Source: a phage. Taken from it: a stretch of DNA of 64,000 nt. Position numbers and translations under genes: made by a program. The notes beneath the pieces were generated by a model. It had not been told where the DNA came from, did no database searches, and saw only the letters and a program-made list of their open reading frames with translations. The stretch lies in sequence record PZ000613.1; one strand, 5' to 3'. Below, piece after piece: positions 10,411-37,831 of this stretch (positions are counted from its first letter, which is position 1; each line of letters opens with the position of its first letter).

Positions 10411-10414
10411 AGAG

Positions 10415-10444
10415 AGGCTGCCTTCGGGCGGCCTTTGTTGTTTT
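10415..10444 (+). terminator. Rho-independent terminator
   Basis: AGGCTGCC-ttcg-GGCGGCCT hairpin plus TTTGTTGTTTT. Confidence 0.7.
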
Positions 10445-10488
10445 AACTAAGGGACAACTCTTACTTAAACTAACAAGAGGAAGCTAAA

Positions 10489-10665
10489 ATGTCTAAGCAA
10501 ACAATCAAACATACGCAAGCTGGTTACTCTTATGTCAACTCTCCTTGCTGTGGTGCTCGTGTTAATCTGGTTAAGGAAGAGGTTCGTATCGTTCAGCGTG
10601 GAGCTACTGTTGTTCGTTCATGCTGTGTCTGTGGTAATGATATTTTCATTAAAGGTAAAGTATGA
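10489..10665 (+). CDS. Small Cys-rich zinc-ribbon-like protein (58 aa)
   Basis: SD GAGGAAG; paired cysteines PCCG...CCVCG; stop overlaps next ATG. Confidence 0.5.
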   Translation: MSKQTIKHTQAGYSYVNSPCCGARVNLVKEEVRIVQRGATVVRSCCVCGNDIFIKGKV

Positions 10666-10889
10666 ATATTGTTTTAGATTCAACTAAACCAAATCAAAAG
10701 ACTTTCCGAGATTTGAGTGTGGGTTCTGTTTTCTCACTTGATGATTGCCCTTGTGATAGAAAGAAATTCTACATGAAGATTGGGGGAGGTTTTTCTGTAA
10801 ATCTATCACACCCTGCTCATAAACTCTCATTCGCTGGTCAAGTACCAGTTACAGAATATAAAGCAACTCTTAAGTTAGAGGAAATGTAA
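10662..10889 (+). CDS. Early small-protein paralog family A member
   Basis: RDLSVGSVFSL...FYMKIG motif. Confidence 0.6.
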   Translation: MNIVLDSTKPNQKTFRDLSVGSVFSLDDCPCDRKKFYMKIGGGFSVNLSHPAHKLSFAGQVPVTEYKATLKLEEM

Positions 10890-11140
10890 TGAAAAACTTC
10901 CAAGCTGCACCAATAACTAAAGTGATTGAAGTTGACGGTGTAATGATGACTGTTCCTCTGAACACTCGTTACATTGCAATTGACAAGATGGGTTATGTAT
11001 GGGCTTGGAAGATTAAGCCTAGCTATAACGCATTATTTGATGAGTTTGTTTGTACTGGTACGTACAGTCCTACATTCTTAGGTTTGTTTGGAGAGTTTGA
11101 CGGTCAGTATAAAATCATCACTCTCCCTGCTTGTGCTTGA
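10889..11140 (+). CDS. Hypothetical protein (83 aa)
   Basis: ATG overlapping upstream stop. Confidence 0.55.
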   Translation: MKNFQAAPITKVIEVDGVMMTVPLNTRYIAIDKMGYVWAWKIKPSYNALFDEFVCTGTYSPTFLGLFGEFDGQYKIITLPACA

Positions 11141-11147
11141 GGTTAAT

Positions 11148-11324
11148 GTGAGAGTAAAGCAAATCCATAAAGACTACTGGAGAGTCGCTGATAGTGAAAA
11201 CCAAAGGCTTGCAGGAATCTCTCTTATAGGTCAATGGTTTGTTGTAACTTCTGCCGCAGGTCAGTATGTTGGACGGTTTCGTTCCCTAAATGAAGCTATA
11301 TCCTTTTCTATCAAAGGTTCTTGA
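11148..11324 (+). CDS. Hypothetical protein (GTG start, 58 aa)
   Basis: GAGG SD 7 nt before in-frame GTG; track start 11088 would overlap upstream gene. Confidence 0.4.
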   Translation: MRVKQIHKDYWRVADSENQRLAGISLIGQWFVVTSAAGQYVGRFRSLNEAISFSIKGS

Positions 11325-11325
11325 T

Positions 11326-11490
11326 ATGATCAAGTGGTTTAAACGTTTCTTCCATCTCCATGATTGGGAGACAATAAAAGAAATTCGTTTACACATATAC
11401 AATGAGATCGGTCAAATAGAAGACACAGGTACTCGTTATATACTTCGATGTAAAACATGTGGTCATATCACCAAGCGAGATATGATCTAA
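11326..11490 (+). CDS. Small hypothetical protein (54 aa)
   Basis: Internal ATG immediately after upstream stop; C-terminal CKTCGH. Confidence 0.45.
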   Translation: MIKWFKRFFHLHDWETIKEIRLHIYNEIGQIEDTGTRYILRCKTCGHITKRDMI

Positions 11491-11498
11491 ATAATTCT

Positions 11499-11574
11499 GC
11501 GCTCTTAGCTCAATGGATAGAGCAGTAGCCTTCTAAGCTATTGGTTACAGGTTCGAGTCCTGTAGGGCGCACCA
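11499..11574 (+). tRNA. tRNA-Arg (anticodon TCT), CCA encoded
   Basis: Cloverleaf: acceptor GCGCTCT/AGGGCGC, D-arm AGCTCAATGGATAGAGC, anticodon loop CTTCTAA, T-arm GGTTCGAGTCC, discriminator A plus CCA. Confidence 0.85.
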
Positions 11575-11580
11575 CATTTA

Positions 11581-11695
11581 GGGCTAGTATGGGTGCGGCA
11601 CCAGAGTTAGTGTATCCCTGTTGAGGCAAGTGCTTTTATAACAGTGGGAATTACTTTCTTAGTGAGCTTCTGGTTCGATTCCAGATAGTCCACCA
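11581..11695 (+). other. tRNA-like element of atypical length (115 nt)
   Basis: Canonical T-arm TCTGG-TTCGATT-CCAGA, 6-bp acceptor-like pairing 11581-86 with 11686-91, discriminator plus CCA; interior 82 nt has no clean D/anticodon arms. Confidence 0.3.
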
Positions 11696-11714
11696 AATCA
11701 AATAGGAGGTAGTT

Positions 11715-11996
11715 ATGAGTTGGGGTGGTGTAATATCCTTAATCTGTATCTTCCTTGTCTGCATAGCCCTTACAGGCTGCGTACAGAGCCGTCCTGATGG
11801 ATGGTGTGCAGTAGCAGTGGAAGGTATTTGTGTTTCTCGCTGGCACCAAGGCGAGAAGGTTCCTTCTGGTGAAATTGATATGCGTTACAGTGGTATCTCA
11901 TGTCTTAACGGTGCAGCAGTAGATGAGGAGACTAAAACCTTATCCAATGCTCAATGGTGTGGCGGTTCTGTAACAACAACCGGTAAGGAGTGGTAA
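11715..11996 (+). CDS. Predicted lipoprotein, Cys-rich (93 aa)
   Basis: Signal peptide ending in lipobox LTGC; SD AGGAGG 7 nt upstream. Confidence 0.65.
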   Translation: MSWGGVISLICIFLVCIALTGCVQSRPDGWCAVAVEGICVSRWHQGEKVPSGEIDMRYSGISCLNGAAVDEETKTLSNAQWCGGSVTTTGKEW

Positions 11997-16137: not shown

Positions 16138-16500
16138 ATGAATACACGTCCCATCAAGGGCAACGTTAATATTGAAACTCTGAACAAGGTTGCATCAAAC
16201 CTCGGTGGTATGTCCAACGAAGAACTTGAGCAAGAACTTGCTTGGATTGCAAATGGTATCACAATTGCTAAAGGTAAGATGGCTCGTGAGCAAAGTAATA
16301 TGAAAGCTCACAAGTATATCATCCGTCGTGCAAACATGTTACCGGATCGGGTTGTACATCTTGCCCGTAAGAACTACGAAAGTGCTAAAGAAGCCCTGCT
16401 TGAAGCAGAGTTTCAGAAGCATCAATTTATGAACAACTATCGAAACTTCCGAGATATTCTTTATATCCGTAAATCGATTGAGTTGATTAAAAACCAATAG
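16138..16500 (+). CDS. Hypothetical protein (120 aa)
   Basis: ATG ORF, first gene of the amidoligase-cluster operon. Confidence 0.6.
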   Translation: MNTRPIKGNVNIETLNKVASNLGGMSNEELEQELAWIANGITIAKGKMAREQSNMKAHKYIIRRANMLPDRVVHLARKNYESAKEALLEAEFQKHQFMNNYRNFRDILYIRKSIELIKNQ

Positions 16501-16511
16501 AGGTTGGTATA

Positions 16512-17708
16512 ATGTTTCCAGTAACATTAGAAGATACTGAAGGTAATGTTTTAACGGTCAACCCCCCTTGTTATGGGTTCCTTCAACTTCGAAACTATAA
16601 TGGCGGCGTTGATGAAAATGATGACGAAGATGATGACTACTTCGACCCTAACATGTATGAGGCAACTCATGGATGGAATATGCACGTTCGAGTGTGGCAT
16701 GAAGAAGCTAACGTTCGTAGTGCTGATGGGGAAGAGTTCCTGTTAAGCCGAGAGATGGATATGTGTAAAATCAAACATATCTGGAACTCCGGAACTCACA
16801 TGAAGATGTTAGGTTTTAGACGTTGGAGTGATGAAAAACCTGTATCCGCAGCTTTAGGTTGGGGTGCAATCGATCATGAAGGCGAGCTTAAAAATAACAT
16901 CGAACGTTGGAACGACAAAAACCCTGAACACCGAACCACACCTCGTGCTGTACTGGAAGCTATGGAAGCATTTGTGGACAAAGATCGTCCCTCCTGTTTA
17001 CGCTGGCACGATAAAGGTTTTATGGGGGTAGCAACTGAGAACATCCCTGCTGATCGTTGTCTGTTCTATTTGATGTTAGACCGAACCTTCTATTGTGAAG
17101 ATGAAGAAAGTCAAGTTGAAACCTTCCTCCATAAATGGTTGGTTGAAGGCTGGACAATCCTTCAGGCTTATGTTTACTCACGAATGGTTAGCACTTACAC
17201 TAACCTCTTGGGTGAAACGAAAGCAACTCTGGTTGGTAATGATTGGGATGCTTGTATCTTCCCAGCGTCGCTATTTACAGTTGGTATGGCTGATAAATAC
17301 GCTGAAGCATTTCAAGTGCCTTGGCGTCAACAGTCATACAGAGATGGATGCGGTCACTTCCGTGATGAAGACTTTAAGTGGATCCATTATGAGAATGATG
17401 AAACAGCAGAATTACGAGTTAACAACTCAATGTTCTTGCCAGTGATGCACCCCGATCTAGTAAAAGATGGTTCAGAGATACTTAAAGGTGATAATCTTTT
17501 GGTTAACTTTACCCGTCGCGTGTCTAAAAATGAGAGAACAGCTAACAAGCTAATCTACGGTATTCGTGCCGAGGCTAAAGACCTGTTCAACATCTACAAC
17601 ATCATTCAGCGATTTAGTAGTGGAACTCTGGACCAAAGTTCGGAGTATTCAGTGATTCCATCCTCTGAGTGGGATGGTATTATGAGCGGATTATTTTTAG
17701 GAAAATAA
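16512..17708 (+). CDS. Hypothetical protein (398 aa), amidoligase-cluster component
   Basis: Long ORF with acidic N-terminal tract and conserved Cys/His/Trp; no family recognised by eye. Confidence 0.7.
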   Translation: MFPVTLEDTEGNVLTVNPPCYGFLQLRNYNGGVDENDDEDDDYFDPNMYEATHGWNMHVRVWHEEANVRSADGEEFLLSREMDMCKIKHIWNSGTHMKMLGFRRWSDEKPVSAALGWGAIDHEGELKNNIERWNDKNPEHRTTPRAVLEAMEAFVDKDRPSCLRWHDKGFMGVATENIPADRCLFYLMLDRTFYCEDEESQVETFLHKWLVEGWTILQAYVYSRMVSTYTNLLGETKATLVGNDWDACIFPASLFTVGMADKYAEAFQVPWRQQSYRDGCGHFRDEDFKWIHYENDETAELRVNNSMFLPVMHPDLVKDGSEILKGDNLLVNFTRRVSKNERTANKLIYGIRAEAKDLFNIYNIIQRFSSGTLDQSSEYSVIPSSEWDGIMSGLFLGK

Positions 17709-17718
17709 AAGGTTAGTT

Positions 17719-36720: not shown

Positions 36721-37201
36721 TGACACCCTATCTTACGATGCGGTCACAGGTAACCTATACTACACAAGATCTCCAAGCAAAGGAGCGATGTGGAACAAAA
36801 GCCATCCCGGAAAGATAGCTGGGTGTAGGATATCGAAAGGTTATATAGGTGTGTATTTCCAAGGAAGACAATGGAGAGCGCACCGACTTATAGCTACACA
36901 CTTTATACCAAACCCTAACAATTATCCAGAAGTCAACCACATTAATGGGGTAAAAGACGATAATCGACTGGAGAATCTTGAATGGGTATCCGCTTCTGAA
37001 AACATACAACATTCCTTTGATATAGGATTGAATAAAGGACATATTCGTGACAATAACGGAATGACCAAGCTATCCTCTGGAGATGTTGTAAAGATCAAAC
37101 AGATGTATGTGAAGGGTTCTAGGGATTTTGGCTCTAGAGGTCTTGGTAAGCTGTTTGGCGTGAGCCATACAGCTATACTCCATGCTTTAAAGGAGCTTTA
37201 A
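36710..37201 (+). CDS. HNH homing endonuclease
   Basis: AHRLIATHF...VNHINGVKDDNRLENLEW HNH motif. Confidence 0.7.
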   Translation: MVLDDTLSYDAVTGNLYYTRSPSKGAMWNKSHPGKIAGCRISKGYIGVYFQGRQWRAHRLIATHFIPNPNNYPEVNHINGVKDDNRLENLEWVSASENIQHSFDIGLNKGHIRDNNGMTKLSSGDVVKIKQMYVKGSRDFGSRGLGKLFGVSHTAILHALKEL

Positions 37202-37219
37202 GCTCATAAAGAGGTTATA

Positions 37220-37513
37220 GTGTCAGCAGAAACAAAAAGATGTACAATTCACACTTACTGTAAATTCTGTAAAGCAGAGGGTGTAAAAAGAGTTGCAACT
37301 TTAATGACCAAGTATTCTCCAATTAGGGGGTACAGGGACAACTATAAGCACTACTCTTGCAGTGATCACTCCCATCTGTTAGAAGATACAGATCCGAATA
37401 GAACAAGGAGAGAGCATAACATCAACCTGAGAGCTACTCTCAAGGAGATGAAAAACAGCTCTCGGAACAACCATTACACTGAAGCTGACTATCAAACTTG
37501 GCTTCGTCTCTAG
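37220..37513 (+). CDS. Hypothetical Cys/His-rich protein (GTG start)
   Basis: ORF 97 aa with CTIHTYCKFC...CSDHSH. Confidence 0.45.
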   Translation: MSAETKRCTIHTYCKFCKAEGVKRVATLMTKYSPIRGYRDNYKHYSCSDHSHLLEDTDPNRTRREHNINLRATLKEMKNSSRNNHYTEADYQTWLRL

Positions 37514-37516
37514 AAC

Positions 37517-37549
37517 AAAGGCTGCCTAATCGGGTGGCCTTTTCTTTTA
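37517..37549 (+). terminator. Rho-independent terminator
   Basis: AAAGGCTGCC...GGTGGCCTTT hairpin plus TTTCTTTT. Confidence 0.6.
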
Positions 37550-37582
37550 TATAAACTAAATTAAACTTCTTAGGTAATAACT

Positions 37583-37831
37583 ATGTCTATTGTAAAAACT
37601 GTAACTATTATTGATGTAATGCCTATCCGTCTTGTTAAGTGGAAATTCACTAATAATCACGGCATTGCTGATATCATTGCAAACCAGATTAGCCACAACC
37701 CAAAAACAGCTCGTACTAACGTAATCCTCCGTGGTGCTGACGGGAAGTTCATTTCTTATAAGAATAAAGATGTAGAGAAAGATTTTCGTGTTGCAGTAGA
37801 AAACCTCATCCCATTCCCTAAAGGAGTTTAA
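37583..37831 (+). CDS. Tandem paralog family C member 1
   Basis: Shares KTARTNV.LRGADGKFISY...PFPKG with next gene. Confidence 0.6.
   Translation: MSIVKTVTIIDVMPIRLVKWKFTNNHGIADIIANQISHNPKTARTNVILRGADGKFISYKNKDVEKDFRVAVENLIPFPKGV

Follow-up and report, generated by a model that had tools for sequence, protein, structure and literature searches.

Phages T4 and T5 encode tRNA-like stable RNAs that have been on record since the 1970s-80s and whose function is still unknown (PMC3014915, PMC9697503). RNAC and RNAD of T4 are northern-validated small RNAs for which no function has emerged in about 50 years (PMC3014915, PMC9697503), and in an evolution experiment with T4 a convergent single-nucleotide polymorphism in rnaD was found on adaptation to a semi-permissive host (PMC12685909). 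The T4 genome has the order tRNA-Arg(UCU), rnaD (species 2, 119 nucleotides, nt) and rnaC (species 1, 139 nt), beside the homing endonuclease gene segB. The T5 record annotates "tRNA-like stable RNAs with unknown functions" in the tRNA cluster, namely RNA1 (144 nt), RNA2 (125 nt) and RNA3 (73 nt). Here we analysed a 64,000-nt stretch of phage DNA, sequence record PZ000613.1 (the window), and describe in it a 115-nt tRNA-like element which starts 6 nt past the CCA of a tRNA-Arg(UCU) gene and which the initial annotation of this DNA had noted next to that gene. Positions of the element are window positions on the + strand. It has a tRNA scaffold, has lost the decoding arm, is distributed as an accessory and is under strong constraint. 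On this basis we consider it fairly probable that the element is the gene for a functional, non-decoding tRNA-like small RNA of ~115 nt, present in some Gordonclarkvirinae coliphages as an accessory cassette.

Compared with T4 RNAC/RNAD, the element likewise follows tRNA-Arg(UCU) immediately, in the same orientation and with a spacer in the range of 1-6 nt, a homing endonuclease gene adjoins (segB in T4, HNH in some kuraviruses), and the sizes are close (119/139 versus 115 nt). RNAC also has a canonical T-arm and long hairpins, and no normal cloverleaf. However, MAFFT found no similarity of RNAC or RNAD to the element beyond the T-arm, the covariance model of the element scored rnaC at 13 bits (E=0.49) and gave no match on rnaD, and RNAD lacks a T-arm. 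The T4 RNAs count as late, whereas the element sits in an early operon, and it is distinguished from them by an encoded CCA and a tRNA-Ala-like acceptor end. T5 RNA1/2/3 resemble the element in being tRNA-sized or larger, in lying in a tRNA cluster with interspersed HNH endonuclease genes, and in having a recognisable T-arm and acceptor with an aberrant middle. They differ in belonging to another phage family (Demerecviridae), and the element model, run over the T5 tRNA region, matched only tRNA-Asn (17.9 bits) and tRNA-Thr (12.9 bits). By these comparisons, the element is analogous to the T4 and T5 RNAs and not detectably homologous to them, that is, of the same loosely defined kind and of another family.

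The element is a sharply bounded accessory unit

The window belongs to a Gordonclarkvirinae (phiEco32/SU10-like) podophage, and a 701-nt query centred on the element's surroundings gave Escherichia phage PGN6866 (98%) and vB_EcoP_SU10 (94%) as best matches. The element was found in 30 phage records (RefSeq duplicates included) with 97.4-100% identity, and in no others of the phage collection. Since ~98 records of the phage group were retrieved at an identity of at least 80% with a primase/helicase query, about 1/3 carry the element and ~68 are without it. The carriers fall into three genera, Kuravirus, Suseptimavirus and Nieuwekanaalvirus, and were isolated in Europe, USA, Japan, Thailand, China and Chile over more than 10 years. 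In phiEco32, which lacks the element, the CCA of tRNA-Arg is directly followed by AAUCAAAUAGGAGG, and the window has this same trailer after the CCA of the element, indicating that the polymorphism is an exact 121-nt cassette composed of a 6-nt spacer and the 115-nt element. The boundaries of this insertion/deletion and of the conserved block coincide with the predicted RNA ends.

Searches were extended to hosts and to environmental collections. No copy of the element was present in 5,426 complete E. coli genomes (blastn, E<=1) or in plasmids. Five relatives in IMG/VR, fetched through the flanking proteins, were all non-carriers, and a covariance-model search of them with filters off returned ordinary tRNA-Arg genes only. 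A pattern anchored on the acceptor and T-loop with a free interior, validated on the window itself, gave 0 matches in the IMG/VR, JGI metagenome and GTDB genome collections, and exact 23-, 28- and 33-mers of the interior gave 0 matches in these collections as well. The interior alone, used as blastn query against phages, returned the same 30 records and no others; a source of the interior was detected nowhere.

The element is conserved in diverged and mosaic surroundings

Eight copies covering every identity class were compared. Only 4 sites varied, element positions 15, 24, 48 and 73 (window 11595, 11604, 11628 and 11653), all of them by G/A transitions. Position 15 lies in the D-loop and position 48 in the apical loop of the long hairpin described below, G24A changes a G·U pair to A-U, and A73G (11653) changes U-A to U·G, with every pair kept in all copies. 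The flanks were far more diverged than the element in TH06 (13.6% versus 0/115 differences, Fisher p=2.7e-7), EP335 (15.6% versus 3/115, p=1.7e-5), TH42 (18.9% versus 2/115, p=1.5e-6) and UKE3 (20.5% versus 2/115, p=1.6e-7). In a four-gamete test, all four allele combinations were seen in 3/6 site pairs, which would reflect either recurrent hits at a few tolerated sites or intragenic recombination.

The surroundings of the element are also mosaic. The tRNA-Arg slot holds at least four alleles among the phages compared, and the element is constant beside them. The window, EP335, UKE3, SR02 and TH06 share a common tRNA-Arg(UCU) allele, phiEco32 has another, and YF01, Bas91 and TH43 have a third that arrived with an HNH homing endonuclease gene. 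The HNH gene was inserted past nt 30 of the original, window-type tRNA-Arg, leaving the 5' 30-nt stump GCGCTCTTAGCTCAATGGATAGAGCAGTAG, which is followed by a ribosome-binding site (RBS) and the HNH open reading frame (ORF). In YF01 (OQ025076.1 67300-68900, minus strand, extract 1107-578), a complete, ~60%-divergent tRNA-Arg(UCU) overlaps the end of the HNH gene, and the insertion looks like a homing cassette bringing its own replacement tRNA. The alignment further showed that the spacer CAUUUA before the element is swapped for UUUUAAACA-A in phages with another tRNA-Arg allele. TH42 (MT446413.1), a record flagged UNVERIFIED in which an assembly error is possible, has a tRNA-Arg(UCU) whose D-arm has shrunk to 4 nt and whose variable region carries a 20-nt insert (extract 260-338), then a 3' fragment of a YF01-type tRNA-Arg (352-390), and then the intact element. 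This aberrant tRNA-Arg scored 36.4 bits with the Rfam tRNA model, above gathering, and was missed by ARAGORN. The gene downstream of the element varies among carriers too, and the recombination joints lie at the predicted RNA ends of the element. We read this conservation amid diverged, mosaic surroundings as a sign of purifying selection acting on all 115 nt.

An element without function could also be uniform. It would then be a hitch-hiker or a pseudo-tRNA in decay, derived from a tRNA-Gln-like gene that an insertion had destroyed, and recent spread, or repeated homogenisation through recombination and homing-endonuclease co-conversion at a tRNA-Arg hotspot, would have kept its copies alike. 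Such an origin would fit an element that no tRNA model accepts and that occurs only in ~30 closely related isolates; the HNH homing endonuclease genes immediately upstream in YF01, Bas91 and TH43 mark the locus as recombinogenic, and the four-gamete pattern fits recombination too. On the other hand, the recombination joints fall exactly at the borders of the element, and it remains 113-115/115 identical beside four tRNA-Arg alleles and three downstream genes, even where the primase gene of the genome has dropped to 84% identity, in carriers of the wide geographical and temporal range given above. A neutral relic would not be expected to retain all 34 modelled pairs, the T-loop, the GG, U8 and the CCA while varying at 4 tolerated sites. 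We therefore regard a functionless relic as unlikely, and the degenerate pseudo-tRNA that the initial annotation had offered as one option is disfavoured by 0-3 changes per 115 nt against a flank divergence of 13.6-20.5%.

Architecture and predicted fold of the element

The element, its parts and the alternative hairpin are as follows.
11581-11695, + strand: tRNA-like element, 115 nt, the conserved unit (sequence, alignments)
11581-11586, + strand: acceptor 5' strand GGGCUA (G1-C, G2-C, G3·U, C-G, U-A, A-U), invariant in 8 copies (sequence)
11590-11603, + strand: D-arm with stem 11590-11592/11601-11603, G·A mismatch 11593/11600 and loop UGCGGC
11604-11660, + strand: irregular long hairpin (element 24-80, ~57 nt) in place of the anticodon arm (constrained fold)
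11651-11665, + strand: alternative small hairpin UUAC-UUUCUUA-GUGA (element 71-85) with an anticodon-arm-like loop containing UCU
11661-11668, + strand: single-stranded linker AGUGAGCU, 8 nt, at the variable-region position (constrained fold)
11669-11685, + strand: canonical T-arm UCUGG-UUCGAUU-CCAGA (sequence)
11686-11695, + strand: acceptor 3' strand UAGUCC, discriminator A 11692 and encoded CCA 11693-11695

The T-arm, the 6-base-pair (bp) acceptor-like helix, the discriminator and the CCA had all been reported by the initial annotation and were confirmed at these positions. The acceptor helix pairs GGGCUA (11581-11586) with UAGUCC (11686-11691), with G·U as the third pair, and its 5' strand is followed by an unpaired G7 (or a G·A mismatch) and U8-A9 (11587-11589). 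The T-loop motif GGTTCRANTCC is found just twice in the 64 kb, once in tRNA-Arg and once in the element, where chance alone would give 0.19. The interior had been described as impossible to fold into D and anticodon arms, and this holds for the anticodon arm only. A plausible D-arm is present, with its stem at element 10-12/21-23 and GG at 11597-11598 (element 17-18), and ARAGORN forced to a 50% threshold picked the identical acceptor, D-arm and T-arm. The element has the tRNA features of a 5-bp T-arm with a UUCRANY loop, a D-arm with GG, and U8. An anticodon arm, with a 5-bp stem and 7-nt loop one nt past the D-arm, is absent, and positions 24-88 are instead taken up by the long hairpin and the linker. 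The sole hairpin with a 7-nt loop (71-85) begins 47 nt past the D-arm, has 4 bp and is energetically inferior.

With the three tRNA helices constrained, the predicted fold has -31.4 kcal/mol, and the long hairpin consists of helices 24-26/78-80, 29-32/72-75, 35-42/60-68 and 43-47/52-56 (~20 bp) with the apical loop AAGU, or GAGU in some phages. Its inner part (11615-11648) is paired with probabilities of 0.6-0.99 also when no constraint is set. The alternative 4-bp hairpin 71-85 gives -26.7/-29.0 versus -31.4 kcal/mol with a pair probability of ~0.2-0.35; it excludes the lower part of the long hairpin, and the natural variants do not discriminate between the two.

Origin of the scaffold and the acceptor end

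Over its 3' 28 nt (T-arm, acceptor strand and CCA), the element matches tRNA-Gln of T4-like Klebsiella phages such as phiA85 at 27/28 positions, with one gap (p<0.0005, shuffling), showing that the element is tRNA-derived. The D-arm of the phiA85 tRNA-Gln has the same unusual build, and the best foreign match of the element covariance model was a phiA85-type tRNA-Gln (22.4 bits, E=0.0013). A tRNA-Gln of a T4-like (Jiaodavirus) phage is the probable source of the scaffold. Both have a D-arm of 3 bp, a purine·A mismatch and a GCGG-containing loop. The element differs from this tRNA-Gln in that 65 unrelated nt stand for the ~22-nt anticodon arm plus variable loop, in the absence of pair 1-72 and of the discriminator G73, in an A4-to-G change, and in not being recognised as a tRNA. 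The tRNA-Gln match, together with the rarity of the T-loop motif and the boundaries at the RNA ends, makes a chance origin of the tRNA features implausible.

Loss of pair 1-72 and of G73 shifts the register, so that the G·U falls at 3-70 and the acceptor end of the element reads G1-C72, G2-C71, G3·U70, C4-G69 ... A73-CCA. G3·U109 (=G3·U70), G2-C110 (=G2-C71), A112 (=A73) and the CCA are invariant in the 8 copies. We take this acceptor to be that of E. coli tRNA-Ala, GGGGCUA/UAGCUCC, minus one pair. Alanine identity in bacteria rests on A73, G2-C71, G3·U70, G4-C69 and G20 (PMC9976931), and the element has A73, G2-C71 and the dominant G3·U70. As cited in PMC9976931, alanyl-tRNA synthetase (AlaRS) charges minihelices bearing G3·U70 (Francklyn & Schimmel 1989). 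This dominant identity set makes charging by AlaRS a concrete sub-hypothesis, in which the element RNA would be an alanine-accepting, non-decoding tRNA mimic, "tRNA-like-domain-only", charged by host AlaRS via G3·U70/A73 and used by the phage to engage or block a host factor that recognises the acceptor/elbow of (aminoacyl-)tRNA. We put this forward tentatively, as a specific version that is itself unlikely. Candidate host targets would be a tRNA-targeting defence nuclease, the trans-translation/ribosome-rescue machinery or an aminoacyl-tRNA-dependent transferase.

Two other tRNA-related RNAs were compared with the element. The element shares with the tRNA-like domain of transfer-messenger RNA (tmRNA) and with the tRNA-Ala acceptor G1-C72, G2-C71, G3·U70, A73, the CCA, the T-arm and a reduced D region, and a long helix takes the place of its anticodon arm, as helix 2 does in tmRNA. 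In contrast, it has 115 nt versus ~360 nt, no pseudoknots and no tag frame with a sensible stop, pair 4-69 is C-G and not G-C, and the acceptor has 6 bp. With the bacterial Y-RNA-like YrlA it shares the concept of a non-coding RNA mimicking the tRNA elbow. However, RF02553 scored 14.1 bits versus a gathering score of 69, in an alignment that covered mostly the neighbouring tRNA-Arg plus the 5' part of the element, and the RNA termini of YrlA belong to the Ro-binding stem instead of an acceptor-CCA end.

The element is not called by tRNA, tmRNA or structured-RNA models

ARAGORN made no tRNA or tmRNA call on the element at the default or the 80% threshold, with or without introns. None of the 4227 Rfam models hit it at gathering score in a search of the whole window, nor at E<=1, and at E<=10 on 311, 121 or 73 nt there was no meaningful match. 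The tRNA model RF00005 did not match the element even at E<=10 in a 73-121-nt search space. The only related Rfam alignments placed the T-arm/UCCACCA end partially on tmRNA models at 7 bits, a score at noise level. The sole tRNA called in the 64 kb by ARAGORN and Rfam was tRNA-Arg(UCU) (11499-11574), the published tRNAscan-SE/ARAGORN annotation of the carrier YF01 reports a single tRNA (PMC9965538), and the element is annotated in 0/30 public carrier records. Because tRNA finders, Rfam and published annotations all give no call, the element is operationally not a tRNA. As refuting a tRNA-like element, the initial annotation had named the joint lack of a stable RNA of the predicted size and of hits to tRNA or structured-RNA models; of these two, the lack of model hits was found (ARAGORN in mildly relaxed modes, Rfam). 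Its general description as a tRNA-like element beside tRNA-Arg holds. Of the options raised at that time, a tRNA mimic fits best, with a tRNA-derived scaffold that no tRNA model matches even at E<=10.

An aberrant decoding tRNA was also considered, either with an extra hairpin between the D-arm and a short anticodon arm (11651-11665, UCU) or with a small intron. Its 7-nt loop UUUCUUA would resemble the tRNA-Arg(UCU) loop CUUCUAA, ARAGORN lowered to a 30-50% threshold can yield forced models of tRNA-Arg(tct) or tRNA-Asn+intron, and another aberrant tRNA-Arg, the D-armless TH42 form, does exist at the locus. Yet that TH42 tRNA scores 36 bits with RF00005, whereas the element has no match, and the alternative arm is short, energetically inferior and of low probability beside a 6-bp acceptor. 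Moreover, the interior is unlike the 5' parts of tRNA-Arg or tRNA-Gln (p 0.46-0.87). We judge a decoding tRNA very improbable. The tRNA with an insertion that the initial annotation had listed is disfavoured likewise, by the 6-bp acceptor, by the missing 5-bp/7-nt anticodon arm at the expected position and by the absence of any way to splice it in E. coli, which is not known to have machinery for small tRNA introns.

Several other candidates were rejected. For a tRNA with a group I or archaeal-type intron, no Rfam intron family matched and the ARAGORN intron mode gave a forced sub-threshold model; the 65-nt interior is also far below the size of group I introns. An embedded second tRNA was suggested by positions 50-115, which by eye resemble a degenerate tRNA-Arg(UCU) and for which ARAGORN at 30% forces a model; it was ruled out, as the interior showed no significant similarity to the 5' 48 nt of the two tRNA-Arg alleles or of tRNA-Gln (p=0.87, 0.46, 0.74) and the Rfam tRNA model had no match on 11626-11698. 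A mini-tmRNA was rejected for want of a sensible tag frame and of any tmRNA model match, and only its alanine-type acceptor end is kept as the sub-hypothesis above. Read by hand, the GCA-initiated frame of the element passes through the T-arm and ends at UAG in the acceptor strand; there are no pseudoknots, the length is 115 nt versus ~250-400 nt, and the ARAGORN tmRNA mode was empty. In an 11-codon ORF (AUG 11589, MGAAPELVYPC*), both variable sites are non-synonymous first-position changes with no synonymous ones, and conservation reaches well past it, so it was taken as non-coding. Minus-strand ORFs of 37-39 aa (amino acids) overlapping the element are mechanical and unsupported. The direct repeat UUAGUG (element 27-32 and 79-84) was dismissed as a target-site duplication, since ~1.6 six-mer repeats are expected by chance in 115 nt (estimate).

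Proposed mechanism and its weighing

We propose that the element is co-transcribed with tRNA-Arg(UCU) in a sigma-70 early operon, that RNase P would cut its 5' end at G11581, and that host 3'-processing nucleases would trim it to the encoded CCA. The RNA may then receive T-loop modifications and, by analogy with T4 RNAC/RNAD and the T5 tRNA-like RNAs, would accumulate as a stable RNA. Because it cannot present an anticodon, we infer that it would act as a tRNA mimic: some protein recognising the elbow and acceptor end of tRNAs would bind it, and the RNA would be a ligand, decoy or sponge of that protein.

A number of observations weigh against this proposal. About 2/3 of the related phages do without the element, and no homologue outside the phage group was found in any other collection searched, so its high identity could partly reflect recent spread or homing-endonuclease co-conversion instead of selection; such co-conversion may contribute to the uniformity. 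Transcriptome or northern data for a carrier phage were not found in the literature, and phiEco32, a phage with studied transcription, is a non-carrier. The unconstrained minimum-energy structure is a rod with the D region paired to the T region (-37.9 kcal/mol, folding z-score only -2), and the tRNA-like fold lies 6.5 kcal/mol above it. The stacked acceptor and T helices give 11 bp, not 12, which may affect RNase P, EF-Tu or AlaRS. There are 0 compensatory changes, and covariation gives no statistical support since the copies are too similar. As for the alanine identity, two of the five determinants, G4-C69 and G20, are absent, and G3·U70 could be a mere A-to-G change in a tRNA-Gln-like ancestor. 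With regard to the fold, G24A makes an A·C mismatch in the rod (2/7 distinct sequences) and keeps the tRNA-like pairing, which is weak evidence pointing towards the tRNA-like fold; homology is the strongest argument for it.

If an alanine-accepting mimic were confirmed, it would give the first functional handle on phage tRNA-like stable RNAs, including T4 RNAC/RNAD, and the acceptor end suggests a specific biochemistry for it, charging by AlaRS. The element is an independent example of a tRNA-like RNA in a third, unrelated phage group, one that is under development for therapy. It is small and sharply bounded, and it offers a natural presence/absence polymorphism with ~30 carriers versus ~68 non-carriers, among which the BASEL carriers Bas90 and Bas91 plate on E. 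coli K-12 with restored O-antigen. Current annotation pipelines (tRNAscan-SE, ARAGORN, Rfam) miss this class of element completely.

Locus and neighbouring genes

The element lies inside a run of small same-strand ORFs, and the corresponding run in SU10 and phiEco32 is the sigma-70-driven early gene region (PMC4281155). The neighbours are listed here.
11326-11490, + strand: upstream small early ORF, phi32_107-like and CxxC-containing, which stops 8 nt 5' of tRNA-Arg (ORF list, comparison)
11499-11574, + strand: tRNA-Arg(UCU), the constant upstream neighbour, window-type allele (ARAGORN; Rfam RF00005 72.4 bits)
11575-11580, + strand: 6-nt spacer CAUUUA, presumed 5' leader for removal by RNase P (from the alignment)
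11696-11714, + strand: trailer AAUCAAAUAGGAGGUAGUU with the RBS of the next gene (alignment)
11715-11996, + strand: downstream early gene, phi32_106-like putative lipoprotein (sequence comparison)

In element-less phages, the trailer stands directly 3' of tRNA-Arg. The element is not coupled to the phi32_106-like gene, as other genes replace it in some carriers. A scan predicted no promoter or terminator between tRNA-Arg and the element. A candidate sigma-70 promoter inside the hairpin (TTGAGG plus TATAAC) was rejected, as its spacing is just 10 nt and the scan reported no site there.

This arrangement bears on the possibility that the element works in cis, in processing or stability of the transcript. 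Its tRNA-shaped fold would then only offer RNase P/RNase E an additional entry site, punctuating the polycistronic early transcript and setting the 5' end of the downstream mRNA, and the excised RNA would be a by-product. The element does stand between ORFs of an operon with 6-8-nt spacers, the RBS of the next gene starts 8 nt past its CCA, and punctuation of transcripts by tRNA-like structures is established biology in other systems. But element-less phages get the same CCA-AAUCAAAUAGGAGG junction from tRNA-Arg, so nothing would be gained, and the downstream gene varies among carriers. An acceptor/T minihelix would also suffice for this purpose, yet the 65-nt interior is equally invariant. 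We consider a processing module quite unlikely.

A signal at the DNA level, such as a phage-sigma promoter, a target or immunity site of a homing endonuclease, or an attP-like tRNA 3' fragment, is in our view extremely improbable. Homing endonucleases do act at the locus, and the interior sequence TAGTGTATC resembles the gp36 promoter motif tAATGTATAtA (motif from PMC4281155). This sequence has two mismatches to the 9-mer core of the motif of gp36, a phage sigma factor, however, and the motif is not enriched, with 20 matches at <=1 mismatch found versus 19.9 expected in the window, so a gp36 promoter was rejected. An attP-type fragment was rejected as well, because no E. coli genome has a matching tRNA or tmRNA 3' half (5,426 genomes, E<=1), and the phages are virulent. 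Conservation of the whole 115 nt with RNA pairing respected also speaks against a DNA signal.

Additional observations

A strong intrinsic-terminator-like hairpin (10 bp with 6 G-C pairs, core GCCTTCGGGC, followed by a T-run) is located at 10413-10436 (+) within the early gene run, upstream of tRNA-Arg by ~1.1 kb. Transcription of the tRNA and the element may therefore rely on an unrecognised promoter (10440-11490) or on read-through. Over its full length, the window tRNA-Arg(UCU) shares 94.7% identity with its counterpart in the unrelated jumbo Pseudomonas phage OBP, much more than with that of phiEco32, a pattern suggesting that distant phages exchange tRNA genes horizontally. In three unrelated coliphage groups, tRNA-Arg abuts genes of non-tRNA stable RNAs: T4 has tRNA-Arg and then rnaD and rnaC (extract 1909-2248), and T5 has a 719-nt RNAX and then tRNA-Arg (extract 20774-21567). 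This adjacency across T4, T5 and the present phage may be a coincidence or a recurring association.

Further downstream in the window, a cluster of large ORFs (~16500-23330, +) was compared with the annotation of the near-identical phage Bas90. The counterparts there are COOH-NH2 ligase, amidoligase and glutamine-fructose-6-phosphate aminotransferase-like enzymes, and the cluster is a predicted peptide or metabolite-ligation module.

Salmonella phage 7-11 (NC_015938, extract 45000-89916) has a 700-nt unannotated gap in the syntenic early region (minus strand, 37171-37800 of the extract), adjoining a phi32_112 homologue. ARAGORN proposed a ~533-nt tmRNA there at a 60% threshold only, and the permuted tmRNA model of Rfam stayed below gathering at 29.6 bits (E=8.5e-4); beta_tmRNA matched in part. 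The gap contains a textbook tmRNA tag frame, which reads GCA AAU GAU AAU GCG UUC CGA GUA GCA GCU UAA, that is, ANDNAFRVAA*. Two downstream units of ~81 nt (37336-37256 and 37251-37171) have canonical T-arms, with no call by ARAGORN or the Rfam tRNA model. By these features, the gap probably contains an unannotated phage tmRNA-like gene and one further tRNA-like RNA.

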